A stretch of 7,128 bases of DNA from a virus (IMGVR_UViG_2695420565_000021:1-7128), one strand, 5' to 3'; positions 1-7,128 are shown, counted from the stretch's first letter. A program made the numbers and translations. Notes: generated by a model from the letters alone, not told the origin.

Positions 1-140
1 CTCTCGTCTGGGGAATATCTCCCCGGCAGCCTTCAGGGAAAAATATCATCAGATAGCTGCTTAAAAAAAGAACAAATGGTAGTGTCCGCTATTGTCAGTA
101 CACCTCAAATATCGCAAAACTCAAGCGATACGAGCTTGAT

Positions 141-305
141 ATGGATGGTTGTGACTCGTTCGGTCAGGATTGTGGCGCTGACATGACTGAAGATTCTGAT
201 GGCGATTATGTCCTGTTTGATGACGTGGTTAAGTTGTTTGAGTTTGATACAACCACTCAGAAGATAGAAAGCCCAGCAAAGGAGGCAACCAGTGAGCGAA
301 ATTAA
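141..305 (+). CDS. Doubtful small acidic protein (54 aa)
   Basis: ATG at 141 to TAA at 303-305, found by hand translation; below the length cutoff of the supplied ORF track. Product MDGCDSFGQDCGADMTEDSDGDYVLFDDVVKLFEFDTTTQKIESPAKEATSERN has about 15 Asp/Glu against 4 Lys/Arg. Only a weak SD (GAG about 6 nt upstream). Its 3' end overlaps the next gene start by 14 nt in another frame. Confidence 0.25.
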   Translation: MDGCDSFGQDCGADMTEDSDGDYVLFDDVVKLFEFDTTTQKIESPAKEATSERN

Positions 306-942
306 TTACCAGGCACTGCGTGAGGCGGCAGAGCGTGCAATTCCGGCAATGGAACGCCTGTTAATGTTGCCAGTTGATGATGATTTGTTAAGTGAACAGG
401 AACTTAAAGATTACGGTGTGGATATTGATGCGCTCAACGCCTTCAAATTTCTGGCCGGACCAGAAACCGTGCTGGCACTACTGGATGAATGGGAAAGAAA
501 CCAGCAATACATCAAACGCCGCGACCAGGAGAACGAGGATATTGCGCTTACGGTTGGGAAGCTGCGCGTTGAGCTGGAAGGCAAAGACAGCAAAATAGCC
601 AATCTTACCGCCGAACGCGATGCTCTTCGTGAAGGTGAGATGGGCGACGCTAGGCATAGCAACACACGGGCCGCAGCTGATATCTACTTCCAACTGGTCG
701 AGGAATGCGAAATTCCTGCTGGCGGATCTCTGGTCGAGTACGTTGACGATATGCGCGAGAAGCTGGAAGCCGCAGAGAAGCGGATTGCTGAACTGGAAGC
801 GCGGGAAATATCGCTCCCAGAACGTAGCAGCATGCTTCATCGAACAGATTTTCACGAGGATTACCAAACGGTAATGGCATACAAAGTTTCTGAAGTCATC
901 GATGCAATCCGCGCTACTGGCATTCGCATCAAAGGAGAGTGA
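292..942 (+). CDS. Ea22-like prophage early-region protein with coiled-coil segments (216 aa)
   Basis: GTG start at 292 preceded by GGAGG at 281-285 (6-nt spacer). The translation has heptad-like charged stretches (IKRRDQENEDIALTVGKLRVELEGKDSKIANLTAERDALREGE, MREKLEAAEKRIAELEAREI) and an N-terminus MSEINYQALREAAE and C-terminus GIRIKGE that I recall as characteristic of lambda Ea22 and relatives. This is a memory-based assignment, not a search result. Confidence 0.7.
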   Translation: MSEINYQALREAAERAIPAMERLLMLPVDDDLLSEQELKDYGVDIDALNAFKFLAGPETVLALLDEWERNQQYIKRRDQENEDIALTVGKLRVELEGKDSKIANLTAERDALREGEMGDARHSNTRAAADIYFQLVEECEIPAGGSLVEYVDDMREKLEAAEKRIAELEAREISLPERSSMLHRTDFHEDYQTVMAYKVSEVIDAIRATGIRIKGE

Positions 943-943
943 T

Positions 944-1801
944 ATGAGCACTATCACTAAAGAACGTATCGAATTGTTCATTAAATCCCCGCTTGAAAAC
1001 GGGCTTACTCGTGGCGAACAAATGGAACTGGCACGAATTGCGCTGGCATCGCTGGAAGCAGAGCCTGTGGCGTATATCATTCAGGACTCTGACGCTCGTA
1101 GTCGTGGAGAGAAAGGCATCCTTCGCTATTTCGCAAATATCAGCGACGAGGATATAAACGAGTACGAAATTACCGTAACTCCGCTTTACGCCGCCCCTCC
1201 AGAGACGGTATCTGTGCCTGATGCGATGGAAATGGATGATGACTTTGACAGCGCGTTTGAACACGGAAAAGCTGTCGGCTGGAACGCCTATCGCGCAGCC
1301 ATGCTTCAGTCCGGAAACTTTCGGGAAAACAAGAATTCGTCAACCAATAATTTTCGTGAAATCGCGGAAACGTCAACCAACTATCCGGTAATTCCTAGTG
1401 AGGTGTTGTCCGCAATCCAGAAGGTTGCCAAGATTCGTGCCGATTTCGATGATTTTGACGGTGACAGGCGAGGTATCTGTGATTGTCTGGATGAGGCTGA
1501 GCAAGAGCTTATCGTTACCATTAACAAATATGCCAGTCAGTTGGCAGCAGAACCTATCGCGCCTAATGACGTTCGAGAGCAGACAGCCATTCCGCAAGTT
1601 CCGGTAACTCCGGATGGTTGGATAAGCTGTAGTGAGCGAATGCCGAAAGGGTATGCTGATGTGTTAGTGACCGATGGCGAGCATGTCGAGGTTAAATGGT
1701 GGGATGAATCTGGGTATTGGAATAGTTGGACGGAACTTAACTCAGATATCTTTGCCGATGAAATAACTCACTGGATGCCGCTACCAGAGCCTCCACTTTG
1801 A
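944..1801 (+). CDS. DUF551 domain-containing prophage protein (285 aa)
   Basis: ATG at 944 with SD AAGGAGAG at 932-939, one nucleotide after the upstream TGA (940-942), which suggests translational coupling. The C-terminus (PDGWISCSERMPKGYADVLVTDGEHVEVKWWDESGYWNSWTELNSDIFADEITHWMPLPEPP) matches the DUF551 signature as I recall it. The ORF-track start at 902 is in the same frame but lies inside the upstream gene and has no SD. Confidence 0.8.
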   Translation: MSTITKERIELFIKSPLENGLTRGEQMELARIALASLEAEPVAYIIQDSDARSRGEKGILRYFANISDEDINEYEITVTPLYAAPPETVSVPDAMEMDDDFDSAFEHGKAVGWNAYRAAMLQSGNFRENKNSSTNNFREIAETSTNYPVIPSEVLSAIQKVAKIRADFDDFDGDRRGICDCLDEAEQELIVTINKYASQLAAEPIAPNDVREQTAIPQVPVTPDGWISCSERMPKGYADVLVTDGEHVEVKWWDESGYWNSWTELNSDIFADEITHWMPLPEPPL

Positions 1802-1897
1802 AAGCGAAGCTTATACATATCTTTTACATCAGCAATCTATTGTTAATCTCCAATCAATGTTACGTTGTCATCTCACTCATGCTTTGGAGGTAGTGAT

Positions 1898-2077
1898 ATG
1901 TCTTGTCCAAAATGCGGTTCTGGAAATATTGCAAAAGAAAAAACAATGCGTGGATGGTCTGATGATTATGTGTGCTGCGATTGCGGATACAACGACTCTA
2001 AAGACGCATTTGGAGAGCGTGGTAAAAACGATTTTGTCAAAATTAATAAAGAACGCGAAGGCAACGAAAAAAGCTAA
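1898..2077 (+). CDS. Small Cys4 zinc-ribbon protein (59 aa)
   Basis: ATG at 1898 preceded by GGAGG at 1886-1890 (7-nt spacer). Product MSCPKCGSGNIAKEKTMRGWSDDYVCCDCGYNDSKDAFGERGKNDFVKINKEREGNEKS has a CxxC...CCxC cysteine arrangement and a Lys/Glu-rich tail. The gene is AT-rich relative to its neighbours and is followed by an intrinsic terminator. The ORF-track start at 1865 is a TTG without SD. Confidence 0.6.
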   Translation: MSCPKCGSGNIAKEKTMRGWSDDYVCCDCGYNDSKDAFGERGKNDFVKINKEREGNEKS

Positions 2078-2140
2078 TTTATTTATTCATATATGAAAAC
2101 AATGTAACCAATATTCGAATTGAAGAACTGAAAGAACACC

Positions 2141-2164
2141 AAGCCGCCTGATGGCGGTTTTTTT
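2141..2164 (+). terminator. Rho-independent terminator downstream of the zinc-ribbon gene
   Basis: Stem AGCCGCC (2142-2148) / GGCGGTT (2153-2159) with loop TGAT, running into a run of 7 T (2158-2164); located 64 nt after the zinc-ribbon stop codon. Confidence 0.55.
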
Positions 2165-2178
2165 ATTGGAGACAAGAA

Positions 2179-2523
2179 ATGTCAGATTTGGCTATGAAGG
2201 TTTTGAAATGGCAATCGACTGGCGATGTCGGCATCAGTAGCGCAACTCTTGCCTCAATCGCATGTGGACTGAAAAAGAATATCTATGGTCATCACTTCGG
2301 CGCTCCACATGACGCAGCAGACTTCCGGCGATGCGTTGCACTTGTTGAGCAGATTCCAGAAATCAGAGATTCATTCGACAAGGTTGCAAAGCGCGTTCCG
2401 GCATTCAAAGGAATCCTCAACGAATGGGATTCACTCGTTGCTCTGTTGAAGTCTGAAATGAAGATACACGAAAACAAAGCACCAGAGACTTACAGAAGAA
2501 TTAGCGAGCTACGCAAGGACTAA
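2179..2523 (+). CDS. Hypothetical prophage accessory protein (114 aa), family not recognised
   Basis: ATG at 2179 with GGAG at 2168-2171 (7-nt spacer). Soluble-looking product with no obvious transmembrane segment (MSDLAMKVLKWQSTGDVGISSATLASIACGLKKNIYGHHFGAPHDAADFRRCVALVEQ...). Flanked by a terminator upstream and hairpin plus T-tract downstream. Confidence 0.6.
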   Translation: MSDLAMKVLKWQSTGDVGISSATLASIACGLKKNIYGHHFGAPHDAADFRRCVALVEQIPEIRDSFDKVAKRVPAFKGILNEWDSLVALLKSEMKIHENKAPETYRRISELRKD

Positions 2524-2524
2524 C

Positions 2525-2543
2525 GCCTCACACTCGATGAGGC
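2525..2543 (+). other. Perfect 6-bp stem-loop immediately after the 114-aa gene stop, without a U-tract
   Basis: GCCTCA (2525-2530), loop CACTCGA, TGAGGC (2538-2543). It starts 2 nt after the TAA at 2521-2523. Could be an RNA-stabilising or processing hairpin rather than a terminator. Confidence 0.3.
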
Positions 2544-2562
2544 CTGTACATATCTGATAGAT

Positions 2563-2585
2563 CCGCTATATGGCGGTTTCTTTTT
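2563..2585 (+). terminator. Weak candidate intrinsic terminator upstream of the AlpA-family gene
   Basis: Short GC stem CCGC (2563-2566) / GCGG (2573-2576) followed by TTTCTTTTT (2577-2585). The sequence resembles the terminator at 2141-2164 (CCGCCTGATGGCGGTTTTTTT versus CCGCTATATGGCGGTTTCTTTTT). Confidence 0.35.
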
Positions 2586-2600
2586 GCCTGGAGAATTAAG

Positions 2601-2792
2601 ATGACCGATACCAGCCTGATTCCTGAGAAAGAAGTGATGAACAAGCTCGGTGTTTCATCACGTCAGACAATCTGGAACTATACCAAACGGCACGGATTTC
2701 CGAAGCCAGTCAGAACCCACCCCAAATCATACCTTCGTGAAGCTGTTGAGGGGTGGATTCTTAACGGTGGCGTTAATCAGAAATGCTCCTGA
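2601..2792 (+). CDS. alpA: AlpA/Xis-family helix-turn-helix protein (prophage excisionase or integrase regulator), 63 aa
   Basis: ATG at 2601 with GGAG at 2590-2593 (7-nt spacer). Translation shows the AlpA-type HTH pattern (KLGVSSRQTIWNYTKRHGFPKPVRTHPKSYLREAVEGWI). Lies directly beside the integrase. An in-frame ATG at 2638 is an alternative start. The gene symbol reflects family membership only. Confidence 0.7.
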   Translation: MTDTSLIPEKEVMNKLGVSSRQTIWNYTKRHGFPKPVRTHPKSYLREAVEGWILNGGVNQKCS

Positions 2793-3951
2793 TGTGCCAG
2801 AACAATTTATCAGCGTGAAGCTCATACGCTTTGCGCTGAGCCTCTATCCAGTCGTGTTTATTGTATACGGACATTATCCCGCCAAGTTCATGACCGAGCA
2901 TTCGCTCAGTAACATGAGGCTCGACATTCATCTCGGACAGACGTGTAACAAGCGTTCTTCTGAAATCATGTGTTCGCCAGTAACCTAGATCCATCCCTCC
3001 CCTTATTCTATTTACGAATCGGTTGGCTGCAGCGATGCTGATCGGTTTGTTTATGTCTTCTCCAGGGAAAAGAACATCATTGTACGTTGTCATGGCCTTT
3101 TCGAGAAAAGGCTTAATTTGTTCGAATATTGGACGACGGATAACATTACCCATCTTGCTATGCTCTTTCGGTACGGTCCATACGTTGTCCAGCAGGTCAA
3201 ATTCTGTCTTTGTTGCCAGCCTAAGCTCTGAGAGCCTCGCCCCCCACAGCATAAGCATCTGATGAAGGAGCTTATTTGACGTAGACGCACGGCTTCTTTC
3301 AATAGCAAGCCAAATCTTAGCCAGTTCGTGATACGACAGTACCCGATCCCCTACCTCAGCGCGGGAGCCGAAGTCCCTTGGTTGGATGCTCATAATTGCG
3401 CAACTATCTATCAACTGACGCCGCATGCACCAACTTATTGCTGATCTTAGTTGACTTAGCACCTGCCTTGCTCGGCGTGGATTATCTCTTTCTTCTTCGG
3501 TAAGCAGGTCAACCCATTGCTTAACCGTGATAGAAGATGCCGGACGATTAGGAAAGGCGTCATGCATGCGCTTCATAACCGTTGATCGGTAAAGTGCCTG
3601 GGTCTTTTCTCTGAGAGTTGTAGAGACGTAGTTGTCGAACCAGTAGTCGAGACACTGGGCGACCGTCATGGAGTTCTCCACCTTCTCTTCAAAATAAGTG
3701 CGTGGATCCGTTCCTGAGAAATAGAGCTTTCGCAAGTCAGCAGTGATCTGTCTGGCATCCTTCAAAGACAGGGATGGGTATCGACCAAGCCCAAGTCGAT
3801 TAGGCTTGCCATGCCAGCGATAGCGGTACTGGAACTGGATGACCCCCTTCGGTGAAATTCGTACGCTGAGGCCATCGGCATCAGCCACTTCTTGTGGGCC
3901 CGAATATGGTTTACCATAAATAGTACGCAGTTTTGTGTCGCTTATAGCCAT
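2773..3951 (-). CDS. int: Tyrosine-type site-specific integrase of the P4/IntS type (392 aa)
   Basis: Full-length - strand ORF. N-terminal arm-binding-like region (LSVRISPKGVIQFQYRYRWHGKPNRLGLGRYPSLSLKDAR) and C-terminal catalytic signature (HDFRRT as the H-x-x-R box, and SVYNKH with the candidate catalytic Tyr). No SD before the ATG. Family named from memory of the fold signature. Confidence 0.9.
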   Translation of the reverse strand: MAISDTKLRTIYGKPYSGPQEVADADGLSVRISPKGVIQFQYRYRWHGKPNRLGLGRYPSLSLKDARQITADLRKLYFSGTDPRTYFEEKVENSMTVAQCLDYWFDNYVSTTLREKTQALYRSTVMKRMHDAFPNRPASSITVKQWVDLLTEEERDNPRRARQVLSQLRSAISWCMRRQLIDSCAIMSIQPRDFGSRAEVGDRVLSYHELAKIWLAIERSRASTSNKLLHQMLMLWGARLSELRLATKTEFDLLDNVWTVPKEHSKMGNVIRRPIFEQIKPFLEKAMTTYNDVLFPGEDINKPISIAAANRFVNRIRGGMDLGYWRTHDFRRTLVTRLSEMNVEPHVTERMLGHELGGIMSVYNKHDWIEAQRKAYELHADKLFWHIRSISD

Positions 3952-4132
3952 AAATAATATTTGGTACGCTCAGAAATAATAGTTTGGTACACACCTGGTA
4001 CACAATATCACATGGACAACAGCGCACAGTAAACAACTATATTTGACGTTCGTAGACATACTCAGGTGAAAAAATGGTTGTTTTTCGAGTTATAACAGAC
4101 AGTTAATTAACTACAGTGGACAATGCTAGACA
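3952..4132. promoter_or_regulatory. Integrase-sbcB intergenic region carrying candidate attachment-site arm repeats and the divergent int and sbcB promoters
   Basis: Direct repeats AAATAATA(G)TTTGGTAC (3952-3967 and 3974-3990), GGTACACA twice with about 10-bp phasing (3987-3994 and 3997-4004), GACAATG twice (4119-4125 and 4129-4135), and CACAG(A)TAAACAAC (4025-4037 here, 4141-4154 inside sbcB). Promoter-like hexamers exist on both strands (for example TATAAC at 4091-4096) but none with a convincing -35/-10 pair. Confidence 0.4.
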
Positions 4133-5557
4133 ATGACAGACACAGATAAACAACCTACCTTCCTCTTTCACGATTACGAAACCTTTGGCACGCACCCCGC
4201 GTTAGATCGCCCTGCACAGTTCGCAGCCATTCGCACCGATAGCGAATTCAATGTCATCGGCGAACCCGAAGTCTTTTACTGCAAGCCCGCTGATGACTAT
4301 TTACCCCAGCCAGGAGCCGTATTAATTACCGGTATTACCCCGCAGGAAGCACGGGCGAAAGGAGAAAACGAAGCCGCGTTTGCCGCCCGTATTCACTCGC
4401 TTTTTACCGTACCGAAGACCTGTATTCTGGGCTACAACAATGTGCGTTTCGACGACGAAGTCACACGCAACATTTTTTATCGTAATTTCTACGATCCTTA
4501 CGCCTGGAGCTGGCAGCATGATAACTCGCGCTGGGATTTACTGGATGTTATGCGTGCCTGTTATGCCCTGCGCCCGGAAGGAATAAACTGGCCTGAAAAT
4601 GATGACGGTCTACCGAGCTTTCGCCTTGAGCATTTAACCAAAGCGAATGGTATTGAACATAGCAACGCCCACGATGCGATGGCTGATGTGTACGCCACTA
4701 TTGCGATGGCAAAGCTGGTAAAAACGCGTCAGCCACGCCTGTTTGATTATCTCTTTACCCATCGTAATAAACACAAACTGATGGCGTTGATTGATGTTCC
4801 GCAGATGAAACCCCTGGTGCACGTTTCCGGAATGTTTGGAGCATGGCGCGGCAATACCAGCTGGGTGGCACCGCTGGCGTGGCATCCTGAAAATCGCAAT
4901 GCCGTAATTATGGTGGATTTGGCAGGAGACATTTCGCCATTACTGGAACTGGATAGCGACACATTGCGCGAGCGTTTATATACCGCAAAAACCGATCTTG
5001 GCGATAACGCCGCCGTTCCGGTTAAGCTGGTGCATATCAATAAATGTCCGGTGCTGGCCCAGGCGAATACGCTACGCCCGGAAGATGCCGACCGACTGGG
5101 AATTAATCGTCAGCATTGCCTCGATAACCTGAAAATTCTGCGTGAAAATCCGCAAGTGCGCGAAAAAGTGGTGGCGATATTCGCGGAAGCCGAACCGTTT
5201 ACGCCTTCAGATAACGTGGATGCACAGCTTTATAACGGCTTTTTCAGTGACGCAGATCGTGCAGCAATGAAAATTGTGCTGGAAACCGAGCCGCGTAATT
5301 TACCGGCACTGGATATCACTTTTGTTGATAAACGGATTGAAAAGCTGTTGTTCAATTATCGGGCACGCAACTTCCCGGGGACGCTGGATTATGCCGAGCA
5401 GCAACGCTGGCTGGAGCACCGTCGCCAGGTCTTCACGCCAGAGTTTTTGCAGGGTTATGCTGATGAATTGCAGATGCTGGTACAACAATATGCCGATGAC
5501 AAAGAGAAAGTGGCGCTGTTAAAAGCACTTTGGCAGTACGCGGAAGAGATTGTCTAA
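4133..5557 (+). CDS. sbcB: Exodeoxyribonuclease I (exonuclease I, 3'-5' ssDNA exonuclease), 474 aa
   Basis: Full-length ORF whose translation from residue 9 onward matches E. coli SbcB as I recall it (FLFHDYETFGTHPALDRPAQFAAIRTD... to ...ALWQYAEEIV). The first 9 residues (MTDTDKQPT) differ from the K-12 N-terminus I remember (MMNDGKQQST). No clear SD. Confidence 0.95.
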   Translation: MTDTDKQPTFLFHDYETFGTHPALDRPAQFAAIRTDSEFNVIGEPEVFYCKPADDYLPQPGAVLITGITPQEARAKGENEAAFAARIHSLFTVPKTCILGYNNVRFDDEVTRNIFYRNFYDPYAWSWQHDNSRWDLLDVMRACYALRPEGINWPENDDGLPSFRLEHLTKANGIEHSNAHDAMADVYATIAMAKLVKTRQPRLFDYLFTHRNKHKLMALIDVPQMKPLVHVSGMFGAWRGNTSWVAPLAWHPENRNAVIMVDLAGDISPLLELDSDTLRERLYTAKTDLGDNAAVPVKLVHINKCPVLAQANTLRPEDADRLGINRQHCLDNLKILRENPQVREKVVAIFAEAEPFTPSDNVDAQLYNGFFSDADRAAMKIVLETEPRNLPALDITFVDKRIEKLLFNYRARNFPGTLDYAEQQRWLEHRRQVFTPEFLQGYADELQMLVQQYADDKEKVALLKALWQYAEEIV

Positions 5558-5599
5558 TTTGAAGCCTTCGCCGCTGGTACGGCGGAGGACAATGTTGAG

Positions 5600-5827
5600 T
5601 CAGGCTTTTTGAACGGTGATGCTCCACGCTGCATCGCCAATCTGCTGATAATCGGTGATGGCATGTCCTTCTTCTGCCGCCCACTGTGGGATTGCTTCAG
5701 TTGCCTGGGTGCAATCAAACTCAATCACTAACTCATCGCCGCTGACCATTTCTGCCAGAGCTGCTTTTGCTTCTATGAGTGGAAACGGACAGACCTGCGT
5801 CACCACATCCAGCTTTTTAATCACCAT
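5600..5827 (-). CDS. yeeD: TusA-like sulfur-carrier protein YeeD (75 aa)
   Basis: Small - strand ORF with the TusA-family CPFP motif (MVIKKLDVVTQVCPFPLIEAKAAL...), 13 nt downstream of yeeE on the same strand (operon arrangement), convergent with sbcB. Confidence 0.9.
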   Translation of the reverse strand: MVIKKLDVVTQVCPFPLIEAKAALAEMVSGDELVIEFDCTQATEAIPQWAAEEGHAITDYQQIGDAAWSITVQKA

Positions 5828-5840
5828 CTTTACACCTTAC

Positions 5841-6899
5841 TTAATTTGCCGCAGCAGTTGCCAGTCGCGCCTTACGCTGCGGTCGAACATACACAAGCCA
5901 GGACGCAGTCCAGACTCCGAGAATCATAAATACAAGGCCAATCCAGCCCTGCCAGGTCATCATTGCAGTCATAACCAGTCCATTACCGATAGAGCAACCA
6001 CCTGCAATACTGGCACCGAAGCCCATCAGTACACCACCTAACCCGCTACGTAATGTTGTTTGTGCATCAGCTGCGCGAACGCGGAACTCACGGCTCGCTT
6101 TGGCTGCAATAAATGACCCCACGAAGATCCCTAACACCAGGAAAACGCCCCAGTTAATGTATTTCATGTCACCCGCGACCAGAAATTGCAGAATATTGGC
6201 CGTTGGGGAAGTGATTCCTAACCCAAACATGCGTCCGGTTGCTTCACTCAGGGGCCAGGCTAAAAGCGCAATCAAACCGATGAGTACAGCAGTGACAAAG
6301 GGATGCCAGCGTTTTTCAAACAGAATATGAGCGATCCCGGTTCGGCGCGGCGGTAAGGTCGCGACTTTGAGTTTTGGCTTCTTCAACTCTTTCATCACCA
6401 CCCAGAGCGTTATCACCAGCAAAACGGCAACCAACGGCCACACAGACAAATTAAAAGTCTCAGCAATAGAGTTATGTTCAGTACTGTAGTGCTGCAAGGT
6501 TTGATTTAAACCACTGGCATGTGGAGAACGCATCACCGCACTCATCACCATATAAGTGAAAAGCGCGATCCAACTGCCGATCAATCCCTCACCCGCGCGA
6601 TACCAGGTCCCGGTGGCACATCCACCCGCCAGAACAATTCCCAGCCCGAAGATATACCCACCTATAACAGTACCAAGCCACGGGAACGCCCCGGCTTCGT
6701 AAGTCAGTAGGCCCGCCTGAATTAACGCAAAAACCCCCACGCTTTGTACCGAAATTGCAATCAGCAAGGCGTAAAACATGCGATTATTTTTCACGATATA
6801 CATATCGCGAAAACCACCTGTCAGGCAAAAACGCCCACGCTGCATGACAAATCCCAGCAGAGCACCACAAATTAGCCCGCTTAATATCATTGAAAACAT
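5841..6899 (-). CDS. yeeE: YeeE/YedE-family inner-membrane transporter (thiosulfate uptake), 352 aa
   Basis: Long - strand ORF encoding a highly hydrophobic multi-pass membrane protein with repeated Cys-containing motifs (RGRFCLTGGFRD, GGCATGTWYRAGEG, GGCSIGNG) typical of YeeE/YedE. Conserved position upstream of yeeD. Confidence 0.9.
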   Translation of the reverse strand: MFSMILSGLICGALLGFVMQRGRFCLTGGFRDMYIVKNNRMFYALLIAISVQSVGVFALIQAGLLTYEAGAFPWLGTVIGGYIFGLGIVLAGGCATGTWYRAGEGLIGSWIALFTYMVMSAVMRSPHASGLNQTLQHYSTEHNSIAETFNLSVWPLVAVLLVITLWVVMKELKKPKLKVATLPPRRTGIAHILFEKRWHPFVTAVLIGLIALLAWPLSEATGRMFGLGITSPTANILQFLVAGDMKYINWGVFLVLGIFVGSFIAAKASREFRVRAADAQTTLRSGLGGVLMGFGASIAGGCSIGNGLVMTAMMTWQGWIGLVFMILGVWTASWLVYVRPQRKARLATAAAN

Positions 6900-7053
6900 A
6901 AATTAATTAACCAGATGAATGTTAATGAGGAAATTATTCATGACTGGTGGAATGCAGACCAATAACCAAATTCTCTAAATTAGAACAAATGGTTATTAAT
7001 GAGGAGTTCGATACAAAAGAATAAAAAAACCGAAGCCAGGTAATGACTCCAAC

Positions 7054-7128
7054 TTACTGATAGTGTTTTATGTTCAGATAATGCCCGATGACCTTGTCAT
7101 GCAGCTCCACCGATTTTGAGAACGACAG
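7054..7128 (-). CDS. plaP: Probable 3' end of an upstream - strand gene, consistent by synteny with plaP/yeeF (partial, continues beyond the window)
   Basis: The only - strand frame open to the window edge reads ...LSFSKSVELHDKVIGHYLNIKHYQ then stop (TAA complement at 7054-7056). Assignment to plaP/yeeF rests on remembered gene order sbcB-yeeD-yeeE-yeeF, not on the 24 visible residues. Confidence 0.4.
   Translation of the reverse strand: MSFSKSVELHDKVIGHYLNIKHYQ

Follow-up and report, generated by a model that had tools for sequence, protein, structure and literature searches.

Phage 21 and e14 in icd, and the elements that integrate into tRNA genes, carry in attP a copy that reconstitutes the part of the target gene lost upon insertion (Campbell's reviews). 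These elements replace the 3' end of their target, so that its promoter and start codon remain native, whereas the element analyzed here, which is inserted in sbcB, replaces the 5' end together with the upstream signals. Replacement of a 5' end has been described for the islands and prophages of dusA, which enter the 5' coding end of the gene, provide a new one and leave the old one as the outer boundary of the element, and whose authors argue that the function of the target gene is preserved (Farrugia et al. 2015, PMC4482086). The element in sbcB follows the same logic as the dusA-specific integrases, in that an in-frame start and N-terminal codons are supplied and the target ORF remains full length (474 aa). 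On the other hand, the target gene is a different one, the integrase lineage is presumably different as well (only the mechanism is compared here), and the dusA elements are mostly genomic islands found across many Proteobacteria, while the sbcB elements are lambdoid phages of Enterobacteriaceae.

The sbcB gene itself is a known insertion site of Stx2c phages (PMC4159516, PMC3519850, PMC8065619), and a preliminary description of the DNA considered here, which named it as a site for lambdoid prophages of the Stx2c type, was right in this respect. The analyzed stretch of 7,128 nucleotides (hereafter the window) shares with the "type 2851" module, known from phages 2851, Stx2c 1717, HK544, mEp234 and Sf101, a near-identical integrase and P arm, the same core, the same target between dacD and sbcB, at the 5' end of the latter, and the flanking AlpA-like gene. 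Nothing essential differs between the window and these phages; the left cargo (Ead/Ea22-like, DUF551 and zinc-ribbon genes) is mosaic from one phage to another. The element in the window belongs to the type-2851 group as published.

The window is a segment of an E. coli chromosome, with a prophage early region on the left and sbcB and other host genes on the right. The early region (1..2792) comprises ORFs for an Ead/Ea22-like protein, a DUF551 protein, a small zinc-ribbon protein, a 114-aa product and a 63-aa AlpA-like product. It is followed by the gene of a 392-aa tyrosine integrase of the phage 2851/HK544/Sf101 type (2773..3951, minus strand), by a spacer of 181 bp with 35% G+C between the divergent genes on both sides (3952..4132), and by sbcB, which encodes the 474-aa exodeoxyribonuclease I (4133..5557, plus strand). 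The ORF calls confirm the coordinates given previously for the divergent pair, i.e. an integrase start at 3951 and an sbcB start at 4133, 181 bp apart. Downstream of sbcB, the minus strand carries tsuB/yeeD and tsuA/yeeE, and an IS1 end occupies 7039..7128. The top-matching complete genome is 97.7% identical across 83% of the window; a contig of E. coli SCPM-O-B-8794 (locus L005) exhibits 98.9% identity over 2475..7037 and diverges leftward.

The integrase possesses both the catalytic domain (Pfam Phage_integrase PF00589, residues 204-366, E 1e-16) and the N-terminal arm-binding domain (Pfam Arm-DNA-bind_3 PF13356, residues 4-85, E 8e-18) that characterize P4-like tyrosine recombinases, and the GARLSELRL, HDFRRT, LGHE and SVYNKH motifs are visible by eye in its translation. 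The AlpA-like helix-turn-helix ORF (63 aa, 2601..2792, plus strand) is convergent with the integrase gene, the 3' end of which it overlaps by 20 nt. An identical gene carries the annotation "AlpA family" in HK544, WGPS8 and SEN34-type phages and "helix-turn-helix transcriptional regulator" in RefSeq; it had no Pfam or NCBIfam match at the thresholds used, and its role as a candidate excisionase or directionality factor is for this reason only a putative one. The sbcB CDS (4133..5557) matches the NCBIfam exodeoxyribonuclease I equivalog with 815 bits, and its product comprises the Pfam domains RNase_T, from residue 12, and Exonuc_X-T_C.

The position of the junction was determined by a four-way comparison of the window, the attP of the free phage HK544, the empty site of a K-12-type E. 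coli, and the junction of phage 1717. The only stretch common to attP, attB and both junctions is the 13-bp core TTTCACGATTACG (4166..4178, plus strand), which spans the sbcB codons F12-H13-D14-Y15 and the first base of E16. The core thus lies within the coding sequence of sbcB, downstream of the start codon, and not wholly upstream of it. To its left the window is identical to attP (...GACAATGACAGACACAGATAAACAACCTACCTTCCTC) and to its right it is identical to the host DNA (AAACCTTTGGCACGCA...). Prophage-free E. coli, including K-12 derivatives, match the window only rightward from about 4149, while the free phages (HK544, mEp234, HK140, Sf101, 2851 and several Stx2a, Stx2c and Stx1a phages) match it leftward, up to 4178; the crossover is placed in the core. 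Over 2500..4178 the window exhibits 98.8-99.2% DNA identity to 26 phage records, and the same range applies to the integrase gene and P arm compared with phages 2851, 1717, HK544, mEp234 and Sf101. The host-derived remainder of sbcB (4179..5557) is 96-99% identical to the gene of prophage-free E. coli. Everything to the left of 4166, i.e. the ATG at 4133, codons 1-11 and all upstream sequence, is phage DNA, and the segment 3952..4178 is very probably the junction next to the integrase (P-O-B') in a lambdoid prophage with the type-2851 module. In GenBank, precisely the 13 bp of the core bear the label "attP; prophage attachment site (type 2851)" in the record of HK544 and "duplication due to insertion of stx2c phage" in that of phage 1717, and the same core is given as the reverse complement CGTAATCGTGAAA in the description of Sf101 (PMC4159516).

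The preliminary description had proposed that attP carries a substitute 5' segment and that integration took place in the 5' end of sbcB, and the boundaries, the core and the identity to attP all bear this out. It had also placed the beginning of the match to the known protein at about residue 9. This holds for the amino acids, which agree from T9 on, and does not hold for the DNA, where the boundary lies further into the gene, in the core; the amino acid match starts earlier because T-F-L is, as it happens, also encoded by the phage segment. The K-12 ExoI residues D15 and E17 that correspond to this stretch are catalytic metal ligands (Breyer and Matthews 2000), which would account for the conservation that lets so short a sequence act as an attachment site in different genera.

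The far, dacD-side junction was compared in two related prophages, phage 1717 and E. coli LCP17S3_I1, the latter being an IS-riddled prophage remnant of 11 kb. In phage 1717 the order is the native dacD-sbcB spacer, ATGATGAATGACGGTAAGCAACAATCTACCTTTTTG, the core TTTCACGATTACG, and then CGCAACACCCCTGAGAACC... and TTTGGTACGCAATTTGGTACACAAC, and the structure in LCP17S3_I1 is the same; in both, two further TGGTACRC repeats follow in the P' arm after the far core. The displaced native 5' end of sbcB (MMNDGKQQSTFL with its upstream region) adjoins dacD in these relatives, where it forms a short dead-end ORF, MMNDGKQQSTFLFHDYA(K/Q)HP-stop. The displaced fragment and the direct repeat of the core, both anticipated at the far end of the element, are therefore present in the relatives, and attB, attP and the two junctions are mutually consistent.

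The P arm (3952..4132) is colinear with the attP of the free phages and unrelated to the native dacD-sbcB spacer. It contains three copies of the arm-type repeat TGGTACRC, all on the plus strand: P1 (TGGTACGC, 3962..3969), P2 (TGGTACAC, 3985..3992) and P3 (TGGTACAC, 3996..4003). These are the only copies in the window, where 0.25 would be expected by chance. The attP of HK544 has five and no others in 4.7 kb, with 0.15 expected; three of the five lie in the P arm, and the remaining two in the P' arm, at 57 and 69 nt past the core. Such a 3+2 arrangement is the classic arm-type layout of integrases that bear an arm-binding domain at the N-terminus, and TGGTACRC is probably the arm-binding site of the integrase.

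The phage-supplied start and codons 1-11 (4133..4165, plus strand) encode MTDTDKQPTFL and are identical to the attP of the free phage. The chimeric SbcB begins with MTDTDKQPTFLFHDYE and the K-12-type protein with MMNDGKQQSTFLFHDYE, and the native counterpart of MTDTDKQPTFL is the colinear (M)MNDGKQQSTFL, the phage ATG corresponding in position to the second ATG of K-12 sbcB. ExoI of E. coli, as crystallised, begins with (M)MNDGKQQSTFLFHDYE and is identical to the query from T9 through residue 100. Across the junction, the predicted peptide of the lysogen is QPTFLFHDYETFGTHPALDR and the native one is QQSTFLFHDYETFGTHPALDR. A TAG two codons upstream makes the ATG at 4133 the sole start that yields a protein with the catalytic motif. 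A frame of 20 codons that begins with the substitute 5' end in the free phage contains the 19-aa peptide MTDTDKQPTFLFHDYAKHP. Substitute and native codons, aligned without gaps from the core, are identical at 21 of 33 nt (chance rate 0.26, binomial P = 8e-6), and the last three differ only synonymously (ACC TTC CTC vs ACC TTT TTG for T-F-L). This nucleotide similarity to the left of the core could result in part from the needs of the integrase in core binding and not from selection on the protein. Further upstream, local alignment revealed no significant homology between the phage P arm and the DNA preceding native sbcB: the score was 11, compared to 8.5 +/- 1.5 for the null, and the best segment was merely 13 nt beside the core.

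Among complete E. coli genomes, 5423 of 5426 match the sbcB part of the window. The query 3952..4300 is matched in full in 582 of the 5426 (~11%), and the match extends across the integrase gene, spacer and sbcB in 578 genomes. Since 578 of the 582 also carry the integrase gene, the upstream sequence almost never occurs without it, and prophage-free strains with this upstream sequence, which would have spoken against the proposal, are not what the survey found. In all four carriers sampled, sbcB is annotated as an intact CDS of 1425 nt. One empty-site genome (hit H40), in which the match starts at the first core base and not before, was suspected to contain a third element; this was rejected, as it is a native locus with a frameshifted sbcB annotation.

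A scan of 80 Enterobacteriaceae sbcB loci, with one genome per species, found the 463 codons from the core to the stop retained in all 80. The native N-termini differ by genus, i.e. MNDGKQQ(S/P)(T/G)FL in Escherichia and Citrobacter, MQDSANQPGFL in Klebsiella and Raoultella, and VSDSA..PTFL in Enterobacter and Kosakonia, and all end with (P/S/A)(T/G)F(L/V) before FHDYET. A discordant class, (V)T(V/D)KN..IQ(S/P)TFL, is found across unrelated genera, and in one Citrobacter (L030) and two Kosakonia loci (L063 and L065) it is preceded by an integrase ~61% identical to that of the window. The same class occurs within the attP of the free genome of Salmonella phage SEN34 (Brunovirus). SEN34 resembles the window in its core, TTTCACGATTACG extended to ...AAA, in its sbcB target, and in the layout of attP: integrase gene, three arm repeats, about 160 bp, start, core and two arm repeats. 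It differs in that it carries its own in-frame substitute, GTG-TVKNNSVQNTFL (GTG ACA GTT ... ACA TTC CTC), with a start and 12 more codons, so that its N-terminus is V/M-TVKNNSVQNTFL from a GTG, compared to MTDTDKQPTFL from an ATG in the window. Its arm repeat is TGTACTYA and not TGGTACRC, in the same 3+2 geometry, and its integrase has ~61% protein identity to that of the window, as estimated from the relatives in L030, L063 and L065. Two integrase lineages about 40% diverged thus keep the same design, which is an independent replication of it.

Genomes of five species contain decayed remnants of such elements, in which a P arm of ~250-300 bp or a weaker trace of one is left: Intestinirhabdus alba (L031), Enterobacter sp. 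(L066), S. enterica subsp. arizonae (L037), Klebsiella sp. WOUb02 (L051) and, as the weaker trace, Phytobacter diazotrophicus (L033). The integrase gene is lost or cut to 34 codons, and sbcB is intact, with 463 codons from the core. No second copy of the core was found within 2.5 kb upstream in these loci; the far junction is either lost or further away. The remnants provide the best available, albeit indirect, evidence that the signals supplied by a phage may suffice for the expression of sbcB.

We propose the following scenario. The tyrosine integrase would recombine attP with the identical 13 bp in sbcB, in codons 12-16, which encode the F-H-D-Y-E exonuclease motif. Directly to the left of its core, attP holds, in frame, an ATG and 11 codons mimicking the native 5' end, for which reason integration does not truncate the gene. 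The native upstream region, start and first codons are exchanged for phage-borne ones, giving a full-length ExoI of 474 aa, and the native 5' piece would be left beside dacD, where the prophage ends on the other side, and form a short dead-end ORF. If the element were excised precisely, the original gene would be restored. We regard this model as a whole, a type-2851 prophage junction that replaces the 5' end of sbcB, as highly probable. The sequences directly show the anatomy of the junction, the core, the arm-type repeats, the intact chimeric ORF and, for all DNA to the left of 4166, an origin in the phage. The geometry of the locus further suggests that sbcB is transcribed and translated from phage-supplied signals, and selection presumably maintained the substitute, by which exonuclease I would be preserved in lysogens. 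Because all DNA upstream of codon 12 is of phage origin and the nearest upstream gene is divergent, any sbcB promoter would be phage-derived, and the P arm (3952..4132) would have to hold the integrase promoter as well as the current promoter and 5' UTR of sbcB.

A consensus promoter scan of 3800..4300 found no sites, and no sigma-70-like promoter was predicted in 3952..4132; the best PWM scores, 9.8 on the plus and 9.1 on the minus strand, fell within the range obtained for shuffles of the AT-rich spacer (8.2 +/- 1.9). Together with the weak and distant Shine-Dalgarno-like element and the description of the locus in papers as disrupted or occupied, this could be taken to mean that the phage upstream DNA has no adequate promoter or ribosome-binding site, that integration silences or weakens sbcB and leaves lysogens poor in ExoI, and that the in-frame substitute is a by-product of the sequence similarity that the integrase requires around its core. 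However, the native promoter is likewise undetected by the same scans, with scores that are lower still, so that the scans say little about the spacer, the ORF is intact in every carrier examined, and the two lineages ~40% diverged both keep an in-frame start 11-13 codons before the core, as well as T-F-L. A full-length sbcB behind a phage-derived 5' end in genomes where the element has decayed is also hard to explain if the gene is dead, and we consider silencing unlikely.

Another source of transcription could be the plus strand deeper in the prophage, e.g. a promoter of the AlpA-like gene at 2601, with read-through antisense to the integrase gene, in which case expression of sbcB would be coupled to that of prophage genes. 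Between 2792 and 4133 the plus strand has a single weak terminator-like hairpin (3094-3113), and the strong hairpins (2141-2160 and 2563-2576) are upstream of the AlpA-like gene, which would leave such a path open. Nonetheless, antisense transcription over 1.2 kb of the integrase gene would be unusual as the sole source, and the remnants that keep sbcB intact with only ~250-300 bp of P arm suggest that the proximal arm is sufficient, which makes read-through quite improbable. The N-termini of SbcB vary widely among Enterobacteriaceae, and the unusual one in the window might a priori be ordinary allelic variation or a product of gene conversion, with the attachment site wholly upstream of sbcB. 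This reading, otherwise a prior possibility alone, is refuted for practical purposes by the identity of the 33 nt encoding MTDTDKQPTFL to the attP of free phages, by their restriction, within E. coli, to the 582 genomes that have the P arm (the integrase gene is also present in 578), and by the displaced native 5' end at the far junction of related prophages.

With respect to replacement of the sbcB 5' end by a type-2851 prophage, the site, the core and the principle have already been described, so the finding is correct but ordinary and opens no new question. In the literature on the sbcB site, Strauch et al. 2008 aside, we found no explicit statement of a phage-borne start and 11 codons, which nevertheless follows directly from the published position of the core. 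Our analysis adds the anatomy at the level of codons, the statistics of the colinear mimicry, the prevalence of 11%, a second phage family on the same core, and fixed phage-derived 5' remnants with an intact sbcB in other genera. The literature usually terms the site "occupied" or "disrupted", and this shorthand in the typing of Stx phages should be corrected: sbcB is not broken, and in lysogens it encodes a full-length exonuclease I, its N-terminal codons and upstream region being those of the phage. The N-terminus MTDTDKQPTFL can serve annotators, and those who compare SbcB alleles, as a marker of the prophage. The locus is a clean example of a temperate phage that replaces the displaced part of a gene, in the less common 5' variant, which also hands the expression signals of the gene to the phage.

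Exonuclease I degrades the 3' single-stranded ends used in recombination by phage and host. One may speculate, tentatively and with considerable doubt, that the phage-borne 5' end is a selected functional module and not a passive scar, that it places ExoI under phage-specified expression in about one in nine E. coli, and that after decay of the element it has become the resident 5' end and promoter in several enterobacterial species. On this idea, an in-frame start, a substitute N-terminus ending in TFL, and upstream signals would be maintained in two or more diverged phage lineages. If it were true, and if expression from the substitute differed from the native one, lysogeny would retune a DNA-repair nuclease.

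Several minor features of the spacer may be mentioned. A GGA resembling a Shine-Dalgarno element is located rather distant from the ATG, at ~14-16 nt, and this also applies to the native gene. The GGA common to the phage and native upstream DNA (~12-16 nt before the ATG) and a CAGACAG motif were noticed only by eye. A perfect 12-bp palindrome, AGTTAATTAACT (4101..4112), is phage-derived and precedes the ATG of sbcB by 21 nt; the region upstream of native sbcB in E. coli lacks it, and it is mostly conserved in the diverged remnant of Klebsiella sp. WOUb02.

In five sbcB loci from the one-genome-per-species scan of Enterobacteriaceae, those of Intestinirhabdus alba (L031), Enterobacter sp. (L066), Salmonella enterica subsp. 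arizonae (L037), Klebsiella sp. WOUb02 (L051) and Phytobacter diazotrophicus (L033), the P arm of an element, i.e. the phage-derived attachment DNA, is cut to a few hundred bp or less upstream of sbcB (about 2240-2550 in each locus), the integrase gene is lost or reduced to 34 codons, and no second copy of the core is present within 2.5 kb. The sbcB gene itself is of full length in all these loci, and its element-derived 5' end therefore appears to have become fixed in these genomes.

The sbcB core is also targeted by a second family of phages, represented by Salmonella phage SEN34 (L087, 1813-2107) and by one Citrobacter locus (L030) and two Kosakonia loci (L063 and L065; around 2290-2530). 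The SEN34-type integrase is about 61% identical to that of the window, and the family supplies its own substitute N-terminus for SbcB, GTG-TVKNNSVQNTFL; its five arm repeats, TGTACTYA, follow the same 3+2 layout as in the phage type of the window. Klebsiella phages such as ST11-VIM1phi8.3 (L088) encode an integrase about 75% identical to the SEN34 type at the DNA level, and the sequence at the expected place of the sbcB core (...GCCGAAGATTACGAAACG..., around 2200-2260) differs from the core. This may be a related integrase that has been retargeted to another site.

Other unusual sbcB 5' ends were encountered. In Raoultella lignicola (L052, around 2470-2534) SbcB begins with MVDSTQPTTFL, as opposed to MQDSANQPGFL in other Raoultella, and the distance to dacD is about 1.4 kb greater than usual; sbcB may here have an element-derived 5' end of a third type. 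SbcB of Salmonella enterica subsp. diarizonae (L014, 2501-2533) has the N-terminus MTDDKQQPTFL, very similar to MTDTDKQPTFL of the phage substitute, and the 2.5 kb upstream contain no dacD; the Salmonella 5' end may be either native or an old element-derived replacement. In Shigella flexneri SFBU0723 (L010, around 2470-2510) the native 5' end, atgatgaatgacgggaggtaacaatctaccttttgTTTCACG, is mutated and out of frame, and therefore sbcB seems to be left without a usable start.

Within the window, the sbcB ATG supplied by the phage is preceded, at a distance of 21 nt, by a perfect 12-bp palindrome, AGTTAATTAACT (4101-4112). The native sequence upstream of E. coli sbcB lacks this palindrome; most of it is retained in Klebsiella sp. 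WOUb02, whose P-arm remnant has diverged. The palindrome could be an operator or a binding site for a bending protein. To the left, terminator-like hairpins on the plus strand follow the zinc-ribbon ORF (2141-2160) and the 114-aa ORF (2563-2576). The AlpA-like ORF and the integrase gene are convergent, their 3' ends sharing 20 nt (2773-2792).

The last stretch of the window (7039-7128) is the terminal part, about 90 bp long, of an IS1 copy whose insertion site lies upstream of tsuA/yeeE; an IS1 is present at the equivalent location, in the tsuA-plaP interval, in E. coli strain S1. Inclusion of this segment explains the median of 13 matches per genome in the whole-window search.
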